NCBI RefSeq assembly: GCF_001433855.1
Contig: NZ_AZCP01000003.1
Span: 207,627 to 231,626 of the forward strand
Direction: 5' to 3'
DNA length: 24,000 bases
DNA from: Levilactobacillus brevis ATCC 14869 = DSM 20054
GTDB lineage: Bacteria; Bacillota; Bacilli; Lactobacillales; Lactobacillaceae
Shown here: one piece after another, positions 12,956 through 23,205 of the stretch
Position numbering within the stretch: the stretch's first letter is position 1
Layout: the number at the start of each line of letters is the position of its first letter
Program-made: the position numbers and the translations under genes
The notes under the pieces: generated by a model
Databases searched by the model: none
The model's input: only the letters and a program-made list of their open reading frames with translations
Told to the model about the DNA's origin: nothing

Positions 12956-12974
12956 ATAAATGACAGAATAAAAA

Positions 12975-13072
12975 ACACGGTCTGGTTGGTAGTCCAGGCG
13001 CGGCCAAAAGCCGTCAGTAACCTGCCTCCTTGGTTGTCCCTATTTTGTTAGTCATTTTAGGGAGGTGTTAGT
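12975..13072 (+). promoter_or_regulatory. Structured 5' leader; candidate yjdF-motif riboswitch (translational)
   Basis: There are two small hairpins: gtctgg..ccaggc at 12980-12999 and cggc-caaaa-gccg at 13001-13013. Two mutually exclusive anti-SD segments, cctcctt at 13025-13031 and tcccta at 13037-13042, can each pair with the SD tagggagg at 13058-13065. The downstream gene belongs to the YjdF family, after which the yjdF RNA motif is named. Confidence 0.35.
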
Positions 13073-13489
13073 TTGGTGATTCATAGCAAGCTAACAGTAT
13101 TTTTTGATCAAGCGTTCTATCGGGGCGTGTTCGAACAATGGACGCCAACCGGCTATCAGGTGGCGCGAGTGACCTTTGGGACTCAACCCCCATCTGCCCC
13201 ACAACTGCAACAAGTGATTTGGCAGCGGTGGCCGACTTTGCAATGGACGGCTCCGACGAGGGTCGTGGTGAGTGAGACCCATCATCGGGTCAAACAACGC
13301 CAACGTGCTGCCCAGCGTGAGCTTAAGCAACACGGGGCCCGACAACGGGCAACCGTGTTGCTTAAGACAGAGCATCGCCAAAACTTGCAGTTGAAAAAAC
13401 AACGGCAGCGTCAAGCGCGGGTTCAGCATGCCGCGGTGGTTCGTCAAAAACAGCAGGCTAAGCGGCTGGCTAAACGTCGCGGGCATTGA
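13073..13489 (+). CDS. yjdF: YjdF-family protein (DUF2992-like) with a highly basic Q/R/K-rich C-terminal tail
   Basis: The N-terminus LTVFFDQAFYRGVFEQ...YQVARVTFG matches my recollection of B. subtilis YjdF (LTIYYDGQFWVGV...). The C-terminal half is R/K/Q-rich. Start is TTG 13073 or GTG 13076, 7-10 nt after AGGGAGG. Confidence 0.7.
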   Translation: MVIHSKLTVFFDQAFYRGVFEQWTPTGYQVARVTFGTQPPSAPQLQQVIWQRWPTLQWTAPTRVVVSETHHRVKQRQRAAQRELKQHGARQRATVLLKTEHRQNLQLKKQRQRQARVQHAAVVRQKQQAKRLAKRRGH

Positions 13490-17160: not shown

Positions 17161-17191
17161 ATTATACCAGATTGAAGTTAGTTGGATTCAA
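17161..17191 (-). promoter_or_regulatory. Candidate extended -10 promoter for the 63-aa membrane protein
   Basis: The minus strand reads TTGAAT-19 nt-TGgTATAAT, with a second TATAAT 3 nt further downstream. The -35 lies in the last codons of the thiolase gene. Confidence 0.35.
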
Positions 17192-18347
17192 TCATCAGCG
17201 CCATCCCCATGCCACCGCCAATACACATTGAGGCGACACCTAAGTGAGTGCCACTGTGCAGGAGTTCATAGAGTAAGGTGACTACAATGCGGGTCCCAGA
17301 AGCACCTAGTGGATGACCCAAAGCAATGGCCCCGCCATTAACGTTTAGGCGGTCATCAGGAAGTGCCAGTGCCTGACCAACCGCGACGGATTGGGCGGCA
17401 AAGGCTTCATTTAATTCAAAACGATCAATGTCACTGACGGATCGCTGGGTTTTGGTTAAGAGTTGTTGGATTGCTGTGACGGGGGCGTAGCCCATGATGG
17501 CCGGGTCAATGCCGACTTCTTGGTAGCCACGGAGCGTTGCGAGATACGCAATACCGGCGGCTCGGGCGGTTGATTTTTTCATGAGAATCATGGCAGCGGC
17601 CCCATCGTTTAAGCCAGCGGCATTGCCGGCAGTAACGGTGCCAGCGGATTTAAAAGCAGGCCGGAGTGCGGCAAGTTGTTCACGTGAAGTTGTGGTGCGC
17701 ACGGCTTCATCGGTCGTTAACGTGGTGGTGCCTAAGGAGACGGGAACGATCTCGTCGGCAAAACGATTGGCTTGTTGTGCAGCGGTTGCCCGCCGTTGGG
17801 AACGAAGTGCGAAAGCATCTTGATCAGCACGGCTAATATGAAATTGAGCTGCAACGTTTTCAGCGGTGATGCCCATGGGGATGTCAGTGAAGGCGTCGGT
17901 CAAGCCGTCATGGGCTAGACTATCAGTGAGCGTAATATCACCAAATTTATGACCCCAACGGGTTTGCGGCGTGAGATAAGGGGCATTGCTCATGCTTTCG
18001 GTGCCACCGACTAGAACAATGTCGGCATCACCCATGAGGATGGCGCTTTGGCCCAAACGGATGGCTTTTAGGCTGGAGCCACAAACCTGATTAATGGTCA
18101 TCGCGGTGCTAGTGACGGGAAGACCAGCGTTAAGTTCAATTTGTCGGGCAATGTTTTGCCCTTGACCAGCCTGTAAGACTGAACCAAAGATGGTCTGCTG
18201 AATTGTGGCGGGGTCTAACCCACTGCGGGTAATCGCGGCTTTGGCAGCGATAGTACCTAATTGCTCGGCGCTTAAGCCCCTTAAACTTTTACCAAATTTG
18301 CCAATGGGGGTGCGTGCCGCACTGACAATAACAACTTCTTCTGCCAT
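17178..18347 (-). CDS. Acetyl-CoA C-acetyltransferase (thiolase II)
   Basis: 389 aa. Contains NQVCGSSLKA (active-site Cys), NVNGGAIALGHPLGASG, and CIGGGMGMA. AAAGGAGAG RBS. Confidence 0.9.
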   Translation of the reverse strand: MAEEVVIVSAARTPIGKFGKSLRGLSAEQLGTIAAKAAITRSGLDPATIQQTIFGSVLQAGQGQNIARQIELNAGLPVTSTAMTINQVCGSSLKAIRLGQSAILMGDADIVLVGGTESMSNAPYLTPQTRWGHKFGDITLTDSLAHDGLTDAFTDIPMGITAENVAAQFHISRADQDAFALRSQRRATAAQQANRFADEIVPVSLGTTTLTTDEAVRTTTSREQLAALRPAFKSAGTVTAGNAAGLNDGAAAMILMKKSTARAAGIAYLATLRGYQEVGIDPAIMGYAPVTAIQQLLTKTQRSVSDIDRFELNEAFAAQSVAVGQALALPDDRLNVNGGAIALGHPLGASGTRIVVTLLYELLHSGTHLGVASMCIGGGMGMALMIESN

Positions 18348-18532
18348 GTTGACTCTCCTTTACGATAGGGTTCCGAACCTTTAATATAACTGACTTTTTG
18401 GGATTTGTCTTGGGTTTGGCTTGATTGATGAGGGGAATTTGGATTTTCTTAAAGAACGGGGATAGCCTAGAAACACTTTATTATTAATAATAAACTTTAA
18501 ATTTTAATAATAAATAAAGTGGATTTTAATGC

Positions 18533-18561
18533 TTGCATTTAAAAAATATTCATGATAGAGT
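18533..18561 (+). promoter_or_regulatory. Promoter of the T-box leader
   Basis: TTGCAT at 18533-18538, a 17-nt spacer, then TGaTAGAGT (extended -10) at 18553-18561. Confidence 0.45.
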
Positions 18562-18567
18562 GTAGCC

Positions 18568-18803
18568 AACATCAAAAAACGAATAAGAAATCTTTCAAAC
18601 GAAGTAGTGACTTATCTGAGGGTTCAGAGAATTGGCGGTTGGTGCAAGCCATGCAGGGTAAGCTTAACGAAATACGAAAGGTGTTTCTTCGGGGTATCTC
18701 CACGTTATTGGGGATTAAAGTGCAGCGGACTTAGGTCCCTGAAGCTGGGTGGTACCGCGCTAAGGCGTCCCTTCTATTTTAGTATAGAAAGGACGCCTTT
18801 TTT
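18568..18803 (+). promoter_or_regulatory. T-box riboswitch leader, specifier codon UAC (tyrosine)
   Basis: Stem I elements: AGTAGTGA (GA/S-turn region), an AGAGA bulge at 18626-18630, and the distal loop TGGTGCAA at 18640-18647. The specifier loop GAAA-UAC-G has UAC at 18673-18675, directly 5' of the closing helix ctttc/gaaag. There is an F-box-like ACGTTA at 18702-18707, the T-box sequence TGGGTGGTACCGCG at 18746-18759, and then a terminator. Confidence 0.85.
18764..18803 (+). terminator. T-box expression-platform terminator
   Basis: ggcgtcccttc-tattttagtata-gaaaggacgcc followed by tttttt. The 5' arm is adjacent to the T-box sequence, giving the usual antiterminator alternative. Confidence 0.8.
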
Positions 18804-18832
18804 GATGTTAAAAATCATAGGAGGTTTTAGTT

Positions 18833-18991
18833 ATGGAGAAGCAAAATGTTAATTTAGGATTGTCGGATGATCGGTTACATTGCCCAGAATGCGGCGATAT
18901 TGTCTTCAAAAAGTTGCCGGGAACGACAGATATTGAGTGTATGAATTGTGGTCATAAAATGCCAGAGTTAACGAAATTAACCCACGCATAA
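18833..18991 (+). CDS. 52-aa zinc-ribbon protein (CPEC-x17-CMNC); not in the supplied ORF track because it is under 60 aa
   Basis: My translation: MEKQNVNLGLSDDRLHCPECGDIVFKKLPGTTDIECMNCGHKMPELTKLTHA*. AGGAGG at 18819-18824 lies 8 nt before the ATG. It is the first ORF after the T-box terminator and contains no Tyr codon. Confidence 0.6.
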   Translation: MEKQNVNLGLSDDRLHCPECGDIVFKKLPGTTDIECMNCGHKMPELTKLTHA

Positions 18992-19042
18992 ATAAGTATT
19001 ACAGATCAAAATTACTGTCAATATTTGATGGGAGGAATGAGT

Positions 19043-19303
19043 ATGCAGGAAACGAATCGTGTCATAAAAACTAAAGAGGACCACCCCATACGCGCTAAGG
19101 TAATTAGTGGAGCAGTTGCAGTTTTTATGTTGTTGCCATTAATTATAACTTTAATTAAATTTGATTGGCAGAAGATGAACGTTGTTCCATTACTAATAAT
19201 AGTCGGCATGATGGTGGCAATTATTACTGGCGTTTGGCGCCTTAGTCAGCAATTAATTACTGTAATTAGAGAGGGTGGGGATAGTGACTTCCGCGAAAGA
19301 TAG
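19043..19303 (+). CDS. 86-aa two-TM membrane protein, unknown function
   Basis: Start moved to ATG 19043 (MQETNRVIK...), 6 nt after GGGAGGA. Two hydrophobic helices: ISGAVAVFMLLPLIITLI and VVPLLIIVGMMVAIITGVW. No Tyr residue. Confidence 0.55.
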   Translation: MQETNRVIKTKEDHPIRAKVISGAVAVFMLLPLIITLIKFDWQKMNVVPLLIIVGMMVAIITGVWRLSQQLITVIREGGDSDFRER

Positions 19304-19329
19304 CGAGTATGCTATTATAGCGTTAACTT

Positions 19330-19364
19330 GGCGTCATATGGTCGAATCTCCATATGGCGTTTTT
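19330..19364 (+). terminator. Rho-independent terminator ending the T-box-driven two-gene unit
   Basis: ggcgtcatatgg-tcgaatct-ccatatggcgt gives an 11-bp stem including 2 G-U pairs, followed by tttt. Confidence 0.6.
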
Positions 19365-19442
19365 AGTTTGGATTAATTAAACTTTACATAAGGCTTAGTC
19401 ACTGGATGTCTGGCTAAATTAAAATTTGGAGGGACCAGAATT

Positions 19443-19691
19443 ATGATTGATTTAAGAGATCGAGATATTATGTCGTCAATGGAAGCAGCTAAACGGTGGA
19501 TGAAAGCGGATGATTATGTTCGTCAAGTTTATCGTAAAACACCGGAGCGCTTTCCCGCTGGGACAATTCGAAAATTTGGGAAACAATTAGTTGTTACACG
19601 AAAAGGAACGGAAGTTGTAACAGGGGAAACCGAGATTGAAGCAAAACAATTTGCCAGCATTCGACAAGATCCTAATATTCGTGACCTCTAA
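19443..19691 (+). CDS. Small helix-turn-helix DNA-binding protein, of the type common on Firmicutes plasmids and phages
   Basis: 82 aa. The segment SSMEAAKRWMKADDYVRQVYRK...GTIRKFGKQLVVTRKGTEVVTG matches the pattern of short HTH proteins (...EAA..WG.....VR.......G..RK.GK.WLVTR.A...). GGAGGG lies 9 nt upstream. Confidence 0.55.
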   Translation: MIDLRDRDIMSSMEAAKRWMKADDYVRQVYRKTPERFPAGTIRKFGKQLVVTRKGTEVVTGETEIEAKQFASIRQDPNIRDL

Positions 19692-19756
19692 TGAGATTAA
19701 AATAATTTGAGTTTATTTTTAACGTATTTTTGAAGCTAGGATTGTGGGACCACCTC

Positions 19757-19785
19757 TTGACAACGCTTTCACTGTTGGCTATCTT
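19757..19785 (+). promoter_or_regulatory. Candidate sigma-A promoter dedicated to tyrS
   Basis: TTGACA at 19757-19762, a 17-nt spacer, then TATCTT at 19780-19785. This leaves a leader of only about 70 nt before the tyrS ATG. Confidence 0.45.
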
Positions 19786-19861
19786 GTGATTGTTTGGCGG
19801 CAATAAATTAGAACTAAACCGCTAGATGAGTTTTGGTGCTTAGTGAAAGGGGAACAAGCTG

Positions 19862-21118
19862 ATGAATATTATTGATGAACTAACCTGGCGTGGTGCAATT
19901 AATCAACAGACCGATGCTGAAGGGCTAAAAAAGTTAACGTCTGAGAAGAAAATATCGTTGTATTGTGGAGTTGATCCAACGGGCGACAGTATGCACATTG
20001 GGCATTTGATTCCATTTATGATGATGAAGCGCTTTGAATTAGCCGGGCATCACCCCTATATTTTGATTGGTGGTGCGACTGGGAGTATTGGTGATCCCAG
20101 TGGTCGAAAGACGGAGCGTCAATTACAAACCATGGATAAAGTGCAGCATAATGTTAAAGCCTTGTCGCGACAGATGCAGCGGCTATTCGGTGGGGATTCA
20201 AATGTGACGATGGTAAATAACTATGATTGGTTATCTAAAATTTCTCTTTTGGATTTTTTGCGGGACTATGGGAAATTAGTTAATATCAATACCATGTTGG
20301 CTAAGGATATTGTTGCCAGTCGTCTAGATACTGGCATTTCATTTACGGAGTTTACGTACCAAATTCTGCAGTCAGTGGATTTCTTGACGCTGCATAACGA
20401 TCATAATATTCAGTTGCAGATTGGTGGAGCTGACCAATGGGGAAACATTACTGCTGGAATTGATTTAATTCATAAAATTAAAGGGGCCGACGAAGCCGTT
20501 TATGGGTTAACGATTCCACTTATGTTAAAGGCAGATGGAACCAAATTTGGCAAAACAGCTGGCGGTGCGATCTGGTTAGATGCTGATAAGACGTCACCGT
20601 ATGAATTTTATCAATTTTGGTTGAATCAGGATGACCGGGATGTTATTCGCTACTTGAAATTTTTCACATTTTTGGGGCAGGATGAGATTAATCAGTTAGC
20701 AGCCACTGTTGAGGATGAACCAGAAAAGCGATTGGCCCAGCGACGTTTGGCAGAGGAAGTCACCCGTTTTGTTCACGGCGAGGAAGCTTTGGAGTCAGCG
20801 CAGCACATTTCGGAAATTCTATTCTCGGGAGATATTCAAAGGTTGACACTTACTGAAGTTCAAGAAGCATTTGAAAAGGTGCCAAATGTTTCGATTAATT
20901 CCGAACCAACTAACATTGTTGAGCTGTTAACCGAAACAGCGATTGAACCTTCACGGCGGCAAGCACGTGAGGATATCACTAATGGTGCGATTACGATTAA
21001 TGGTGAACGCTGTACGAATACGGACGCACAATTGAATCCTAAAACGAATTTCTCTGGTAAGTTTATGGTTATCCGACGGGGGAAGAAAAATTATTTCTTA
21101 GCAAAAGTAAAAGATTAG
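19862..21118 (+). CDS. tyrS: Tyrosyl-tRNA synthetase (tdc-locus copy)
   Basis: 418 aa. HIGH motif (DSMHIGHLIPF), KMSKS variant (TKFGKTAGG), and a C-terminal S4-like domain. Synteny with tyrDC and tyrP. Confidence 0.95.
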   Translation: MNIIDELTWRGAINQQTDAEGLKKLTSEKKISLYCGVDPTGDSMHIGHLIPFMMMKRFELAGHHPYILIGGATGSIGDPSGRKTERQLQTMDKVQHNVKALSRQMQRLFGGDSNVTMVNNYDWLSKISLLDFLRDYGKLVNINTMLAKDIVASRLDTGISFTEFTYQILQSVDFLTLHNDHNIQLQIGGADQWGNITAGIDLIHKIKGADEAVYGLTIPLMLKADGTKFGKTAGGAIWLDADKTSPYEFYQFWLNQDDRDVIRYLKFFTFLGQDEINQLAATVEDEPEKRLAQRRLAEEVTRFVHGEEALESAQHISEILFSGDIQRLTLTEVQEAFEKVPNVSINSEPTNIVELLTETAIEPSRRQAREDITNGAITINGERCTNTDAQLNPKTNFSGKFMVIRRGKKNYFLAKVKD

Positions 21119-21324: not shown

Positions 21325-23205
21325 ATGGAAAAAAGTAATCGCTCACTTAAAGATTTAGATTTAAATGCATTATTTATTGGGGATAAGGCCGAAAATGGAC
21401 AGTTGTATAAAGATCTGCTTAATAAATTAGTGGATGAACATTTAGGATGGCGTAAGAACTACATACCTTCGGATCCAAATATGATTGGTCCAGAAGATCA
21501 AAACTCTCCAGCGTTTAAAAAGACTGTTGGGCATATGAAGACAGTCTTAGATCAATTGTCAGAACGGATTCGAACAGAGTCTGTTCCATGGCATTCGGCT
21601 GGTCGTTATTGGGGTCACATGAATTCAGAGACCCTAATGCCTGCTCTATTGGCGTATAACTATGCCATGTTATGGAATGGTAATAACGTGGCTTATGAAT
21701 CTTCACCAGCAACGTCGCAAATGGAAGAAGAAGTTGGCCAAGAATTTGCCCGATTAATGGGTTATGACTATGGTTGGGGCCACATTGTCGCAGATGGTTC
21801 CTTGGCTAATCTTGAGGGACTCTGGTATGCGCGAAATATTAAATCACTCCCGTTTGCCATGAAAGAAGTTAATCCAGAATTAGTTGCCGGTAAGTCCGAT
21901 TGGGAGCTTCTTAATATGCCGACTAAAGAAATTATGGATCTTTTGGAGAATGCGGGTTCTCAGATCGATGAAGTCAAGAAGCGTTCAGCTCGAAGTGGTA
22001 AGAATCTACAACGCCTTGGGAAATGGCTAGTACCACAAACGAAGCATTATTCTTGGATGAAGGCCGCTGATATCATTGGTATTGGTTTGGATCAAGTTGT
22101 TCCTGTTCCAATTGATAGTAATTATCGGATGGATATTCAAGCCTTAGAAAGTATTATTCGTAAATATGCGGCTGAAAAGACACCAATACTAGGTGTGGTT
22201 GGTGTGGCCGGATCAACTGAAGAAGGTGCCGTTGATGGCATTGATAAGATTGTCGCTTTACGTCAAAAGCTGCAAAAGGAAGGAATTTACTTTTATCTAC
22301 ACGTAGATGCTGCATATGGTGGATATGCTCGGGCATTGTTCTTGGACGAGGACGATCAGTTTATTCCATACAAAAATTTACAAAAAGTACATGCGGAAAA
22401 TCATGTCTTCACGGAAGATAAAGAATACATCAAGCCAGAAGTCTATGCGGCATATAAAGCTTTCGATCAAGCAGAGTCCATTACAATTGATCCCCATAAG
22501 ATGGGATATGTACCATACTCGGCTGGGGGCATTGTCATTCAAGATATTCGGATGCGTGACACGATTTCCTATTTTGCAACATATGTATTTGAGAAGGGTG
22601 CCGATATTCCGGCATTGCTAGGTGCTTATATTCTGGAGGGCTCCAAAGCGGGTGCCACTGCTGCATCTGTTTGGGCAGCACACCACACATTGCCATTGAA
22701 CGTGACAGGATATGGGAAGTTGGAAGGTGCCTCAATTGAAGGGGCTCACCGTTACTATGATTTCTTGAAGAATTTAAAGTTTGAAGTGGCTGGTAAACGG
22801 ATTTCAGTTCATCCGTTAATCTCACCTGACTTCAATATGGTTGACTATGTTTTAAAAGAAGATGGCAATGATGACTTAATTGAAATGAATCGATTGAATC
22901 ATGCCTTCTATGAACAAGCATCTTATGTTAAAGGGTCCTTGTATGGTAAAGAATATATCGTATCACATACGGACTTTGCTATCCCAGATTATGGTGATAG
23001 TCCATTGGCATTTGTTGAAAGTCTAGGCTTTAGCGAAGCTGAATGGCGACATGCCGGAAAGGTTACAATCATTCGCGCTTCGGTTATGACGCCGTATATG
23101 AATCAACGAGAAAACTTTGACTACTTTGCACCACGAATCAAAAAAGCAATTCAAGCAGACCTTGAAAAAGTCTATGCTTCGGTTAATCAAAAGGAAAATG
23201 TTTAA
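21325..23205 (+). CDS. tyrDC: Tyrosine decarboxylase (PLP-dependent, group II decarboxylase)
   Basis: 626 aa. I recognise the N-terminus [32 protein letters not shown]... as L. brevis TDC. The PLP-lysine motif is [22 protein letters not shown]. Confidence 0.95.

Follow-up and report, generated by a model that had tools for sequence, protein, structure and literature searches.

The tyramine locus of Levilactobacillus brevis ATCC 14869 = DSM 20054 raises the question of what a tyrosine-specific T-box controls when it is not the leader of a tyrosyl-tRNA synthetase gene. A T-box is normally taken as a sign that the genes downstream encode an aminoacyl-tRNA synthetase, a transporter or a biosynthetic enzyme for the amino acid it specifies. 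In the window, by which we mean the whole stretch of 24,000 nucleotides analysed, such an element terminates 1059 nt before the ATG of tyrS at position 19862. The sequence-only reading had located it about 1 kb from tyrS and not attached to it; both points hold, and the interval contains three real genes, a conserved terminator and a conserved promoter. tyrS (19862-21118, plus strand) codes for the tdc-type paralog of tyrosyl-tRNA synthetase (Pfam; NCBIfam TIGR00234, E=1.3e-128) and is followed by tdc (21325-23205, plus strand; Pfam), the tyrosine decarboxylase gene. In other L. brevis loci the tyrP permease and nhaC antiporter genes come after tdc, and this window has ORF fragments past 23205. 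By its gene context the T-box is evidently no orphan, being attached to a conserved module of small proteins. We consider it probable that it is a tRNA-Tyr-sensing attenuator of a sub-clade devoid of Stem II, that its targets are the genes for a zinc-ribbon and a membrane protein rather than tyrS, and that the whole forms a conserved accessory module.

The complete T-box leader (Rfam RF00230) occupies positions 18585-18803 of the plus strand. A local covariance-model scan by E-value aligned the RF00230 model full-length to 18585-18775 with 62.9 bits and E=6.6e-13. This score misses the curated threshold of Rfam 15, a gathering score of 93, so that a default scan at the gathering threshold reported no T-box in the window. 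The deficit in bits is due to the missing Stem II: in the Rfam alignment of the L. brevis leader, 27 model positions correspond to 2 nt at the Stem II site. Other T-boxes also score below 93 on the same model at comparable E-values, namely L014 (86.7 bits), L021 (74) and the Asn T-box L097 (85.7). The leaders orthologous to that of L. brevis reach 65-87 bits (E=1e-12 to 1e-17), and the tyrS-attached T-boxes of L028, L040, L043, L033 and L047 reach 104-133 bits. The sub-threshold score, the lack of an evident K-turn and the absence of Stem II make sequence alone an insufficient ground to assume that the leader functions. Its identification as a genuine tyrosine-sensing T-box, a predicted riboswitch, is nevertheless confirmed by the comparisons described below. 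Each hallmark that the sequence-only reading had named is present at its place on the plus strand, and the covariance-model check that it had proposed yielded the full-length match, though below the gathering score. It had also dismissed two ORFs overlapping the leader (18552-18734 and 18607-18852) as almost certainly non-coding. The comparison between species leads to the same conclusion: neither ORF exists in S. yichangensis, and L. enshiensis and L. fujinensis have only truncated versions.

Stem I (18590-18682, plus strand) was delineated from the Rfam alignment, per-species helix tables and covariation. It comprises a base helix (18590-18596 with 18676-18682), a middle helix (18611-18617 with 18656-18662) and a distal helix (18633-18636 with 18648-18651) that leads from the AG bulge to the distal loop. 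The AG bulge AGAGA (18626-18630) matches the consensus AGAGA, and the distal loop GGUUGGUGCAA (18637-18647), which includes GGUGCAA, matches the consensus GgUUGGUGaaA. Both are kept in all orthologs and constitute the predicted platform for the tRNA elbow. The middle helix has 98% of its alignment cells paired in eight leaders, with four of its seven pairs changed on both sides, and the distal helix has all cells paired, with all four pairs changed on both sides. The S-turn of the specifier loop is represented by AGUA (18603-18606) together with GAA (18669-18671). The base of Stem I in L. brevis has no UGA...GA motif or lower helix, and the Rfam alignment marks non-canonical pairs there. From our own reading of its sequence, the F. 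rossiae leader may carry an extra lower helix at this position. De novo folding of Stem I by minimum free energy (MFE) or RNAalifold gave non-canonical structures in which the distal loop pairs with the T-box sequence. These were treated as a thermodynamic artefact, and the canonical helices were evaluated explicitly per species and on the alignment in their place.

The triplet UAC (18673-18675), followed by the purine G18676 and the closing helix, occupies the specifier position of the model (GAA-N-UAC-R), which bears out the tyrosine specificity first read from the letters. When tyrS T-boxes are aligned to this model the register is identical, with GAAGUACA in L033, GAAUUACA in L047 and GAAUUAC in the housekeeping tyrS leaders of Levilactobacillus. 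UAC is invariant in 11/11 orthologous leaders; the base before it is A or C and the base after it G, U, A or C. Since UAC alone is constant among the orthologs and its flanking bases vary, a shifted specifier, whether AUA (Ile) or CUA (Leu), is ruled out. The T-box bulge UGGU matches an A73 discriminator, which is that of tRNA-Tyr. There is no tRNA gene in the window.

Downstream of Stem I, a short hairpin (18696-18715, plus strand; RNAalifold, covariation) carries the F-box CGUUA in its loop (18703-18707; ACGUUA from 18702) and fills the Stem IIA/B region, canonical Stem II being absent. Its seven pairs show 90% of cells paired, and five of them are changed on both sides. Stem III follows (18723-18741, plus strand), with seven pairs, a bulged C18726 and the loop UUAG. 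RNAalifold supports it with several compensatory pairs on an alignment of four species, and 66% of its cells are paired on a MAFFT alignment of eight species. By eye, we attribute this low value to misalignment in the distant species. The T-box sequence UGGGUGGUACCGCG (18746-18759, plus strand) is identified by direct reading and by the Rfam alignment; in the housekeeping tyrS T-boxes the corresponding sequence reads GGUGGUAACGCG.

The antiterminator (18746-18771, plus strand) combines two helices, 18747-18749 with 18769-18771 and 18757-18760 with 18765-18768, around a bulge UGGUACC that holds the UGGU predicted to pair with the tRNA 3' end. All cells of the antiterminator pairs are paired, with G-C replaced by A-U in F. 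rossiae and C-G by U-A in Secundilactobacillus. The helix alone is weak (-7.4 kcal/mol, z=+0.8), as expected of a structure that needs tRNA for its stabilisation. The intrinsic terminator of the leader (18762-18803, plus strand) is a hairpin of 15 pairs with one mismatch (18762-18799) followed by U6. It has a predicted energy of -22.1 kcal/mol (z=-6.5), was recovered too as an inverted repeat, and shows 97% of cells paired, both sides having changed in 8 of the 15 pairs. Terminator and antiterminator share sequence, the 5' arm of the former (18762-18770) overlapping the 3' strand of the latter (18765-18771), and the two predicted structures are mutually exclusive. For the leader structure as a whole, 91% of the cells are paired in eight orthologous lineages vs 39-52% with slid partners, 23 pairs are changed on both sides vs 4-8 in the slid controls, and none of 500 shuffles reached the observed pairing. 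The antiterminator conformation is likewise backed by covariation in the eight leaders.

A putative promoter for the leader can be read directly at 18534-18562 (plus strand), with the -35 hexamer TTGCAT (18534-18539), a 17-nt spacer and the extended -10 element TGATAGAGT (18554-18562). It matches the consensus weakly and was not listed by the promoter scan of the locus. The block TGATAnnGT is kept in the alignment of orthologous leaders, and S. yichangensis has TTGACA-17-GATAAT at the equivalent place. We infer a promoter role for this element, which would put the predicted 5' end of the transcript at about 18568-18570. An inverted-repeat search also disclosed a candidate long-range helix on the plus strand between AACAUCAAAAAA (18568-18579) and UUUUUUGAUGUU (18798-18809), the latter spanning the U-tract plus the next 6 nt. 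The two strands are complementary at 12 of 12 bases, and the MFE fold of the leader is closed by this helix. Its energy statistics are weak because it is A+U-rich. The case for the helix is based on conserved complementarity, which is retained in other lineages and in F. rossiae involves wholly different sequences.

The first gene after the T-box (18833-18991, plus strand), preceded by the ribosome-binding site AGGAGG (18820-18825), starts with an ATG 30 nt past the U-tract of the leader. It encodes a 52-aa polypeptide with the motif HCPECGD-x15-C-x2-CGH, whose four conserved cysteines suggest zinc binding. Its structure model is a three-stranded zinc ribbon with a mean pLDDT of 65.7. The family counts just 12 clusters among 5.8 billion, and the gene is found in 1-4 tandem copies across species, the T-box lying directly upstream of it in every lineage. 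The next gene (19043-19303, plus strand) encodes a two-helix membrane protein of 86 aa with the conserved tail VIREGGDSDFRER, modelled as a helical hairpin (H16-39, H47-84; mean pLDDT 69). Only 9 relatives of it were found among 1.84 billion representatives; all 7 of those with readable surroundings (six context look-ups, one contig) sit in the same module. For neither small gene were relatives found away from such loci. Searches of Pfam, NCBIfam, PHROGs and PDB sequences, and Foldseek, returned nothing informative for either protein. Together, the zinc-ribbon and membrane proteins are nearly free of tyrosine (138 residues, window background 3.4%, P about 0.008), which fits proteins made under tyrosine starvation.

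A third small gene (19443-19691, plus strand) encodes an 82-aa protein with an excisionase-like helix-turn-helix fold (HTH_59, Pfam PF20038, E=1.9e-20; PHROG 2655 'excisionase', E=5.9e-10) that is probably DNA-binding. Its identity to the L. brevis protein is 96% in L. enshiensis, 89% in L. suantsaii, 90% in L. zymae and 74% in S. yichangensis, a conservation about equal to that of TyrRS. In all three genes, for the zinc-ribbon, membrane and HTH_59 proteins, pN is well below pS. To judge from these substitution patterns, the three small genes are under purifying selection and hence coding.

Between the membrane-protein and HTH_59 genes lies a second intrinsic terminator (19330-19366, plus strand), with a hairpin at 19330-19361 of 12 pairs, an 8-nt loop and UUUUUAGUUU. 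Its energy is -16.7 kcal/mol (z=-4.3), and that of its Levilactobacillus equivalents -16 to -17 kcal/mol. In the alignment with L. enshiensis, L. fujinensis and L096, the stem is invariant and the loop variable; L. suantsaii has a different hairpin at this site. We predict that this terminator closes the unit formed by the T-box, the zinc-ribbon gene and the membrane-protein gene. Four Levilactobacillus lineages, and a metagenomic contig close to them (L096), have a terminator after the membrane-protein gene; L101 and F. rossiae have one after the HTH_59 gene. The promoter scan identified a promoter-like element TTGACA-17-TATCTT just 5' of tyrS (19757-19785, plus strand), which is kept in all co-directional loci, spacer included, as TTGACA-N17/18-TAT(C/G/T)TT. 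No second T-box was found in 18350-19900, hence none between this promoter and tyrS, and a search for repeats common to the promoter regions of the leader and of tyrS gave nothing convincing.

Next to a tdc-type tyrS, the T-box is followed by the zinc-ribbon gene(s), the gene for the membrane protein and that for HTH_59, in this order, in about ten species from four genera of Lactobacillaceae. This arrangement is found in L. brevis, L. enshiensis, L. fujinensis, L. suantsaii, L. zymae, S. yichangensis, S. hailunensis and F. rossiae, as well as in a Lentilactobacillus fungorum-like contig and in metagenomic contigs. The loci have at least five different upstream neighbours. Plasmid sequences searched by blastn with the 1.4-kb region gave no match. 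The module T-boxes form a clade of their own, 40-53% identical to tyrS-attached T-boxes. In Furfurilactobacillus rossiae the tdc-type tyrS, 79% identical to that of the window, is preceded by its own T-box (94 bits), and the module, which is divergently transcribed, has a second one (65 bits). As the two units face apart and each has a T-box, that of the module cannot serve tyrS there.

These data suggest a switch whose mechanism is ordinary and whose regulated genes are new. Transcription would start near 18569. When tRNA-Tyr is charged, the terminator at 18762-18803 would form and the transcript would stop there. When it is uncharged, its GUA anticodon would pair with UAC at 18673-18675, its elbow would dock on the platform made by the AG bulge and the distal loop, and its free 3' end (ACCA) would pair with UGGU at 18750-18753. 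The antiterminator would then be stabilised and RNA polymerase would continue. Read-through would reach the zinc-ribbon and membrane-protein genes, the L. brevis unit stopping at 19330-19366; the HTH_59 gene comes next, and tyrS would use its own promoter at 19757-19785. The small proteins could relay the tyrosine-starvation signal to the locus. Published expression data on the neighbouring genes fit this view: in L. brevis, the induction of tyrS does not depend on tdcA (PMC8419935), and tyrosine induces tdc (PMC3499163).

The T-box could instead still be the leader of tyrS, heading one long operon of the zinc-ribbon, membrane-protein, HTH_59 and tyrS genes, and perhaps tdc, in which the hairpin 19330-19361 serves for processing or terminates leakily. 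On this view read-through would raise tyrS under tyrosine starvation, and the small genes would be passengers. We regard this as possible, though on the unlikely side. The genes are all co-directional and separated by short gaps, and the T-box of L080 heads an operon in which another gene precedes tyrS. L. brevis tyrS rises about 15-fold late in growth and tdcA does not (PMC8419935), as expected under a T-box. In S. yichangensis only 19 nt, without a hairpin, separate the stop of the membrane-protein gene from the start of the HTH_59 gene, and there, as in L102, the stretch from the module to tyrS showed no terminator; in these two lineages transcription may plausibly run on into tyrS, and in L. 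brevis it may do so in part. Against a single long operon stand the 12-pair hairpin and U-run that the Levilactobacillus loci examined keep downstream of the membrane-protein gene, the conserved promoter owned by every co-directional tyrS, and the divergent units of F. rossiae with a T-box each. A different objection to any regulatory role is that the T-box might be a decaying relic of an ancestral tyrS leader, split off by insertion of mobile DNA and regulating nothing useful. The low Rfam score (62.9 vs 104-133 bits for tyrS-attached T-boxes), the missing Stem II, the excisionase-like HTH gene and the view that the tdc cluster of L. brevis is a genomic island (PMC6351943) all go in this direction. 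Decay is, however, hard to reconcile with functional motifs that are all intact, an unchanged UAC, and about 23 base pairs upheld by compensatory changes across four genera, with terminator and antiterminator both covarying. The module T-boxes moreover group together as one clade, always with the same genes downstream, and F. rossiae keeps one besides its tyrS T-box. The relic reading is already disfavoured, and we find it hardly credible.

The role of the small proteins invites a bolder proposal, reminiscent of anti-TRAP, in which the zinc-ribbon protein(s), induced by uncharged tRNA-Tyr and perhaps tethered by the small membrane protein, bind and alter a regulator, or else act on the decarboxylase or the antiporter. 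The most plausible target would be the product of the neighbouring HTH_59 gene, working at the conserved promoter of tyrS, so that tyrosine starvation would raise TyrRS or cut tyrosine consumption. The strict synteny of the zinc-ribbon, membrane-protein and HTH_59 genes beside the tyrS promoter in about ten species speaks for it, as do an HTH_59 protein as conserved as TyrRS and the operator-like conservation of the promoter spacer. A zinc-ribbon copy number of 1-4 might suit a protein that acts by titration. There is a precedent in B. subtilis, where anti-TRAP is induced by uncharged tRNA-Trp (PMC6524683), and a signal of opposite polarity makes physiological sense for a tdc gene induced by tyrosine (PMC3499163). 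The proposal is nonetheless purely inferential, the zinc-ribbon family has no similarity to anti-TRAP in sequence or fold, and the HTH_59 protein, closest to phage excisionases, could be a remnant of a mobile element. We consider it unlikely as it stands. It is similarly doubtful that a relay switched by tRNA-Tyr, from the zinc-ribbon protein and its membrane partner to HTH_59, the decarboxylase or the antiporter, couples tRNA charging to tyrS and tdc, with the 5'/3' helix perhaps stabilising only the read-through mRNA.

With the attenuator of the two small genes as the preferred reading, a distinct clade of Tyr T-boxes appears dedicated to three tiny, strongly conserved, uncharacterised genes, which in tyramine loci always neighbour the accessory tyrS. 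The finding touches on two questions, namely why there is a second tyrS in the tdc cluster and how tyramine producers spare tyrosine for translation. It also provides a candidate site, open to testing, at which tyramine formation in the gut and in fermented foods may be regulated. A relay by the small proteins, if true, would mean that a system of the anti-TRAP type had evolved a second time, independently. For annotation, the default use of the Rfam 15 gathering threshold misses a bona fide T-box clade. L. brevis lies outside the coverage of Wels 2008.

Compared with known systems, the element is akin to the tyrS T-boxes of the tdc clusters of Enterococcus durans and E. faecalis, with which it shares UAC, UGGGUGGUACCGCG, AGUA, the F-box, a GNUG-type distal loop, the terminator/antiterminator switch and the setting in a tyramine locus (PMC3315439). 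The E. durans leader was shown experimentally to exert tyrosine-responsive antitermination under tyrosine limitation (PMC3315439). The Enterococcus leader, 322 nt long, lies directly 5' of tyrS, whereas the zinc-ribbon and membrane-protein genes directly follow the T-box here; in the Levilactobacillus, Secundilactobacillus and Lentilactobacillus loci examined, the link between T-box and tyrS is replaced by one between T-box and small proteins. The prototype of Bacillus subtilis tyrS has the same overall architecture, with pairing to the specifier and to the acceptor end and the UGGU/A73 match. Unlike it, the L. brevis leader has no Stem II and no evident K-turn and scores below the Rfam gathering threshold, and its genes code for no aminoacyl-tRNA synthetase, biosynthetic enzyme or transporter. 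The lack of Stem II, with Stem I joined almost directly to the Stem III/antiterminator region, recalls the glyQS-type T-boxes, whose leaders are devoid of the whole Stem II and IIA/B region. The L. brevis leader differs from these by the F-box in a short hairpin (18696-18715) and by a specifier for Tyr and not for Gly.

The closest analogy to the module as a whole would be the Trp T-box/anti-TRAP system of B. subtilis. Anti-TRAP, a zinc-binding protein of about 50 aa with four cysteines, is encoded in the operon rtpA-ycbK, where a membrane-protein gene comes next. To our knowledge, cases in which a T-box controls a regulatory protein are very rare, and anti-TRAP is the only well-known one. The resemblance lies in organisation: a profile search of PDB sequences with the zinc ribbon did not return anti-TRAP at E up to 10, and Foldseek of the zinc-ribbon model against the PDB found generic zinc ribbons only, with E of 0.14 or worse. 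The membrane protein of the module is an 86-aa hairpin and not a transporter, there is no known TRAP-like partner, and a regulatory role is hypothetical. What the module probably has in common with anti-TRAP, which is listed under a Trp T-box (PMC2494555), is a T-box for an aromatic amino acid that drives a Cys4 protein of about 50 aa outside charging, synthesis and transport.

All the motifs named in the sequence-only reading, which had proposed a tyrosine T-box at 18533-18803, are read directly on the forward strand: AGUA (18603-06), the AG bulge AGAGA (18626-30), the distal loop GGUUGGUGCAA (18637-47), the GAA of the S-turn (18669-71), the specifier UAC followed by G (18673-75), the F-box (A)CGUUA (18702-07) and the T-box sequence UGGGUGGUACCGCG (18746-59). 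The terminator hairpin with U6 (18762-18799; -22.1 kcal/mol, z=-6.5) overlaps with its 5' arm the 3' strand of the antiterminator (18765-71). Alone, the antiterminator is weak (-7.4 kcal/mol, the level of shuffled sequence), which is a requirement of a tRNA-stabilised switch. A permissive local scan gives a significant RF00230 match over the full model length at 18585-18775 (62.9 bits, E=6.6e-13), though below the Rfam 15 gathering score of 93 bits. The score falls short because Stem II is absent, 27 model positions being reduced to 2 nt in the Rfam alignment, and because the alignment is poor at the base of Stem I. Among T-boxes, lack of Stem II is a known natural variation. The element is almost certainly a tyrosine T-box. 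The RNA belongs to the family by its architecture and inferred mechanism and misses three family features, namely the curated score, Stem II and the canonical class of regulated gene. Its mechanism is ordinary; the novelty lies in the set of regulated genes and in the separation from tyrS.

A scan of the whole window at the default Rfam gathering thresholds reports no T-box. Its sole report is an azaaromatic (yjdF-type) riboswitch aptamer at 12959-13057 (+; RF01764, 84.5 bits, E=3.6e-16), directly 3' of which lies a 138-aa DUF2992 ORF (13073-13489). The threshold of 93 bits excludes the whole clade to which the window T-box belongs (63-87 bits) and several other matches with low E-values, like those of comparison loci L014 (86.7 bits) and L021 (74 bits) and an Asn T-box of L. 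suantsaii (85.7 bits). The clade would thus go undetected in default annotation.

T-boxes of tyrS genes read GAA-N-UAC-R in the RF00230 alignment, like GAAGUACA at the tdc-linked locus L033, GAAUUACA at comparison locus L047 and GAAUUAC in the housekeeping tyrS T-box of three Levilactobacillus species. The window reads GAAAUACG in the same columns. UAC is invariant in 11/11 orthologous leaders examined; the base 5' of it is A or C, the base 3' is G, U, A or C, and the S. hailunensis leader keeps UAC while CAA replaces GAA. The constancy of UAC amid variable flanking bases across orthologs excludes a reading shifted to AUA or CUA. The UAC specifier proposed from the sequence is therefore in the right register. 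UGGU in the T-box bulge fits the A73 discriminator of tRNA-Tyr, and the window itself has no tRNA gene.

Eight leaders were aligned with MAFFT (L. brevis, L. enshiensis, L. fujinensis, L. suantsaii, S. yichangensis, comparison contig L101, the Lentilactobacillus-like contig L102 and F. rossiae) and the canonical helices were scored as written from the L. brevis sequence, with slid partners as controls. In the terminator form 91.0% of cells are paired versus 39-52% in the controls, a figure favoured by deriving the structure from one of the aligned sequences. Free of this bias are the 23 pairs changed on both sides, versus 4-8 in the controls; the observed value was reached by 0/500 shuffles. 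The antiterminator form has 90.3% of cells paired across the eight leaders, with compensatory changes from G-C to A-U in F. rossiae and from C-G to U-A in Secundilactobacillus. Covariation extends to the middle and distal parts of Stem I, the F-box hairpin and both terminator halves. Stem III is paired in 66% of cells of the eight-leader alignment, a low figure attributed, as judged by eye, to MAFFT misalignment in distant species, and its compensatory pairs are visible with RNAalifold in four species. The helix at the base of Stem I, not scorable on the MAFFT alignment, was tabulated in four species, where 5-7 pairs close the specifier loop directly after UAC.

The T-box follows a thiolase gene on the opposite strand (17178-18347, -) and precedes a 52-aa Cys-rich ORF, the zinc-ribbon gene (18833-18991, +), whose ATG lies 30 nt from the U-tract and is served by an AGGAGG site. 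Next come the gene of an 86-aa hydrophobic membrane protein (19043-19303, +) and, by Pfam assignment, those of an 82-aa HTH_59 protein (19443-19691, +), tyrS (19862-21118, +) and tyrosine decarboxylase (tdc; 21325-23205, +). In fetched L. brevis loci tdc is followed by tyrP and nhaC, and loci identical to that of the window are found in many L. brevis genomes; in one strain an IS-type transposase gene (HTH_38/rve; L003 10508-11533, CP031169.1) lies between tdc and tyrP. The detachment from tyrS noted from the sequence is borne out. The scan finds a single T-box in 18350-19900, so tyrS has none of its own directly upstream, and a terminator and a promoter-like element of tyrS intervene. This second terminator, 3' of the membrane-protein gene, is a 12-pair hairpin with UUUUUAGUUU (19330-19366; -16.7 kcal/mol, z=-4.3) whose stem is invariant and loop variable in L. 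enshiensis, L. fujinensis and comparison locus L096; in L. suantsaii this position holds a different hairpin. Directly 5' of tyrS, the promoter-like element TTGACA-17-TATCTT (19757-19785) is kept with its spacer in all co-directional loci. Conservation of the region 19757-19800 across genera, including the spacer and a downstream GTTGTTT, suggests an operator for some regulator, possibly the adjacent HTH_59 protein. A direct repeat, GTTTGGATTAATTAAACTTT (19366-19385) and GTCTGGCTAAATTAAAATTT (19408-19427), lies after the second terminator and before the HTH_59 start codon and may serve the HTH_59 gene as promoter or operator; its first copy overlaps a block conserved in Levilactobacillus.

The order T-box, zinc-ribbon gene(s), membrane-protein gene and HTH_59 gene is found in every member with readable surroundings, adjoining tdc-type tyrS, tdc and tyrP, while the upstream neighbours vary among species. 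The hosts are L. brevis, L. enshiensis, L. fujinensis, L. suantsaii, L. zymae, S. yichangensis, S. hailunensis and F. rossiae, together with a Lentilactobacillus fungorum-like contig and metagenomic contigs. By homology search both small-protein families are extremely small, with 12 clusters among 5.8 billion for the zinc-ribbon family and 9 relatives among 1.84 billion representatives for the membrane protein. L. brevis has one zinc-ribbon copy, L. zymae and F. rossiae two, L. enshiensis three and L. fujinensis four, each copy having its own ribosome-binding site in the latter two species; tandem paralogs lie at L094 5001-5513, L095 4237-4949, L104 4658-4946 and L105 5001-5330 (fetched loci). 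The module T-boxes (63-87 bits) all lack Stem II, all have UAC and form a separate clade, with 50-100% identity within it and 40-53% to tyrS-attached T-boxes. In L. suantsaii two T-box units lie in tandem: immediately 5' of the module, a class II aminoacyl-tRNA synthetase gene follows a second T-box (L097 2620-2862, 85.7 bits) whose specifier is apparently AAC (Asn).

The module T-box could have been a displaced tyrS leader. At other tyrS genes, among them the tdc-linked copy of L033 and the Levilactobacillus housekeeping copies, the T-box core lies 73-108 nt upstream, unlike in the window, and in E. durans a 322-nt T-box leader directly adjoins the tyrS of the tdc cluster (PMC3315439), whereas the window leader adjoins the zinc-ribbon gene. 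F. rossiae decides the matter. The tyrS beside its module is a tdc-type paralog, 79% identical to the TyrRS of the window; the housekeeping TyrRS of its type strain (L045) is 66-67% identical to both. This tdc-type tyrS carries a T-box of its own (94 bits), and the module, in the opposite direction, has a second one (65 bits) and a strong terminator after HTH_59. The module T-box is thus not simply a displaced tyrS leader. Downstream of the F. rossiae tdc-type tyrS, a tdc-like gene (L104 504-2400, -) reads as two overlapping ORFs (368 and 331 aa); the split marks a pseudogene with a frameshift or else an error in the assembly. The direct targets of the T-box are very probably the zinc-ribbon and membrane-protein genes, and we consider it somewhat likely that tyrS is not one in L. 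brevis.

The small ORFs are genes, as judged from their sequences: pN lies far below pS (at least 0.56, saturated) in every comparison, at 0.15-0.45 for the zinc-ribbon and membrane genes and 0.02-0.28 for HTH_59, and all have Shine-Dalgarno sites. The zinc-ribbon family shares four cysteines in the motif HCPECGD-x15-C-x2-CGH, and the protein is modelled as a zinc ribbon of three strands (pLDDT about 80 in the core, 65.7 on average). For the membrane protein a hairpin of two helices is predicted, with a charged tail (...GGDSDFRER) that is conserved. Searches of curated families, solved structures and folds point to no function for either protein. The HTH_59 protein, conserved at the level of TyrRS, resembles phage excisionase-type HTH proteins. 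Tyrosine is absent from 16/16 zinc-ribbon sequences and from six of the nine membrane-protein sequences, the other three having one each; at the 3.4% background of the window, 138 residues would lack it with P about 0.008, the sequences being related and not independent. Its near-absence fits proteins needed when tyrosine is scarce. Searchable literature, which covers few subscription journals, holds no mention that we found of this T-box or of its small genes.

The predicted transcript begins with 12 nt (18568-18579, AACAUCAAAAAA) that match 18798-18809 (UUUUUUGAUGUU), the terminator U-tract and six bases beyond, with full complementarity. In the MFE fold of the leader this is the closing helix, and it would enclose the whole T-box; its energy z-scores are modest because it is A/U-rich. 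The complementarity recurs in other lineages, as read partly by eye: CAUCAA(A)GG pairs with CCUUGAUG in Secundilactobacillus, CAAAUAACAAA with UUUGUUAUUUG (11 bp, of unrelated sequence) in F. rossiae, and L102 has a pairing too; in L. suantsaii it is weak. Since the 3' strand reaches past the termination point, the helix is possible only in read-through RNA, whose 5' end it might selectively protect.

A complete, covarying tyrosine T-box switch lies directly 5' of the zinc-ribbon and membrane-protein genes; terminators are present, tyrS has a promoter-like element of its own, and the arrangement as a whole is conserved. Uncharged tRNA-Tyr would stabilise the antiterminator, and transcription would then run into these two genes and, in lineages without the intervening terminator, extend to HTH_59. 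In L. brevis the T-box is unlikely to control tyrS directly. RNA-seq of this species showed, late in growth, an induction of about 15-fold for tyrS and none for tdcA (PMC8419935), which fits leaky read-through, a relay by the module or separate regulation of the tyrS promoter; the E. durans tyrS promoter is under pH control (PMC3315439). Tyrosine induces L. brevis tdc (PMC3499163), a polarity opposite to that of the T-box. For this reason the most plausible role of the module would be to signal tyrosine starvation to the locus.

The best analogy to the module, in function only, is anti-TRAP of B. subtilis, which binds zinc. Sequence and fold searches detected no homology between anti-TRAP and the zinc-ribbon protein, and we hold it doubtful that the module would be a relay of this type. 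Anti-TRAP is a small regulatory protein induced by uncharged tRNA-Trp (PMC6524683) and is listed under a Trp T-box (PMC2494555).
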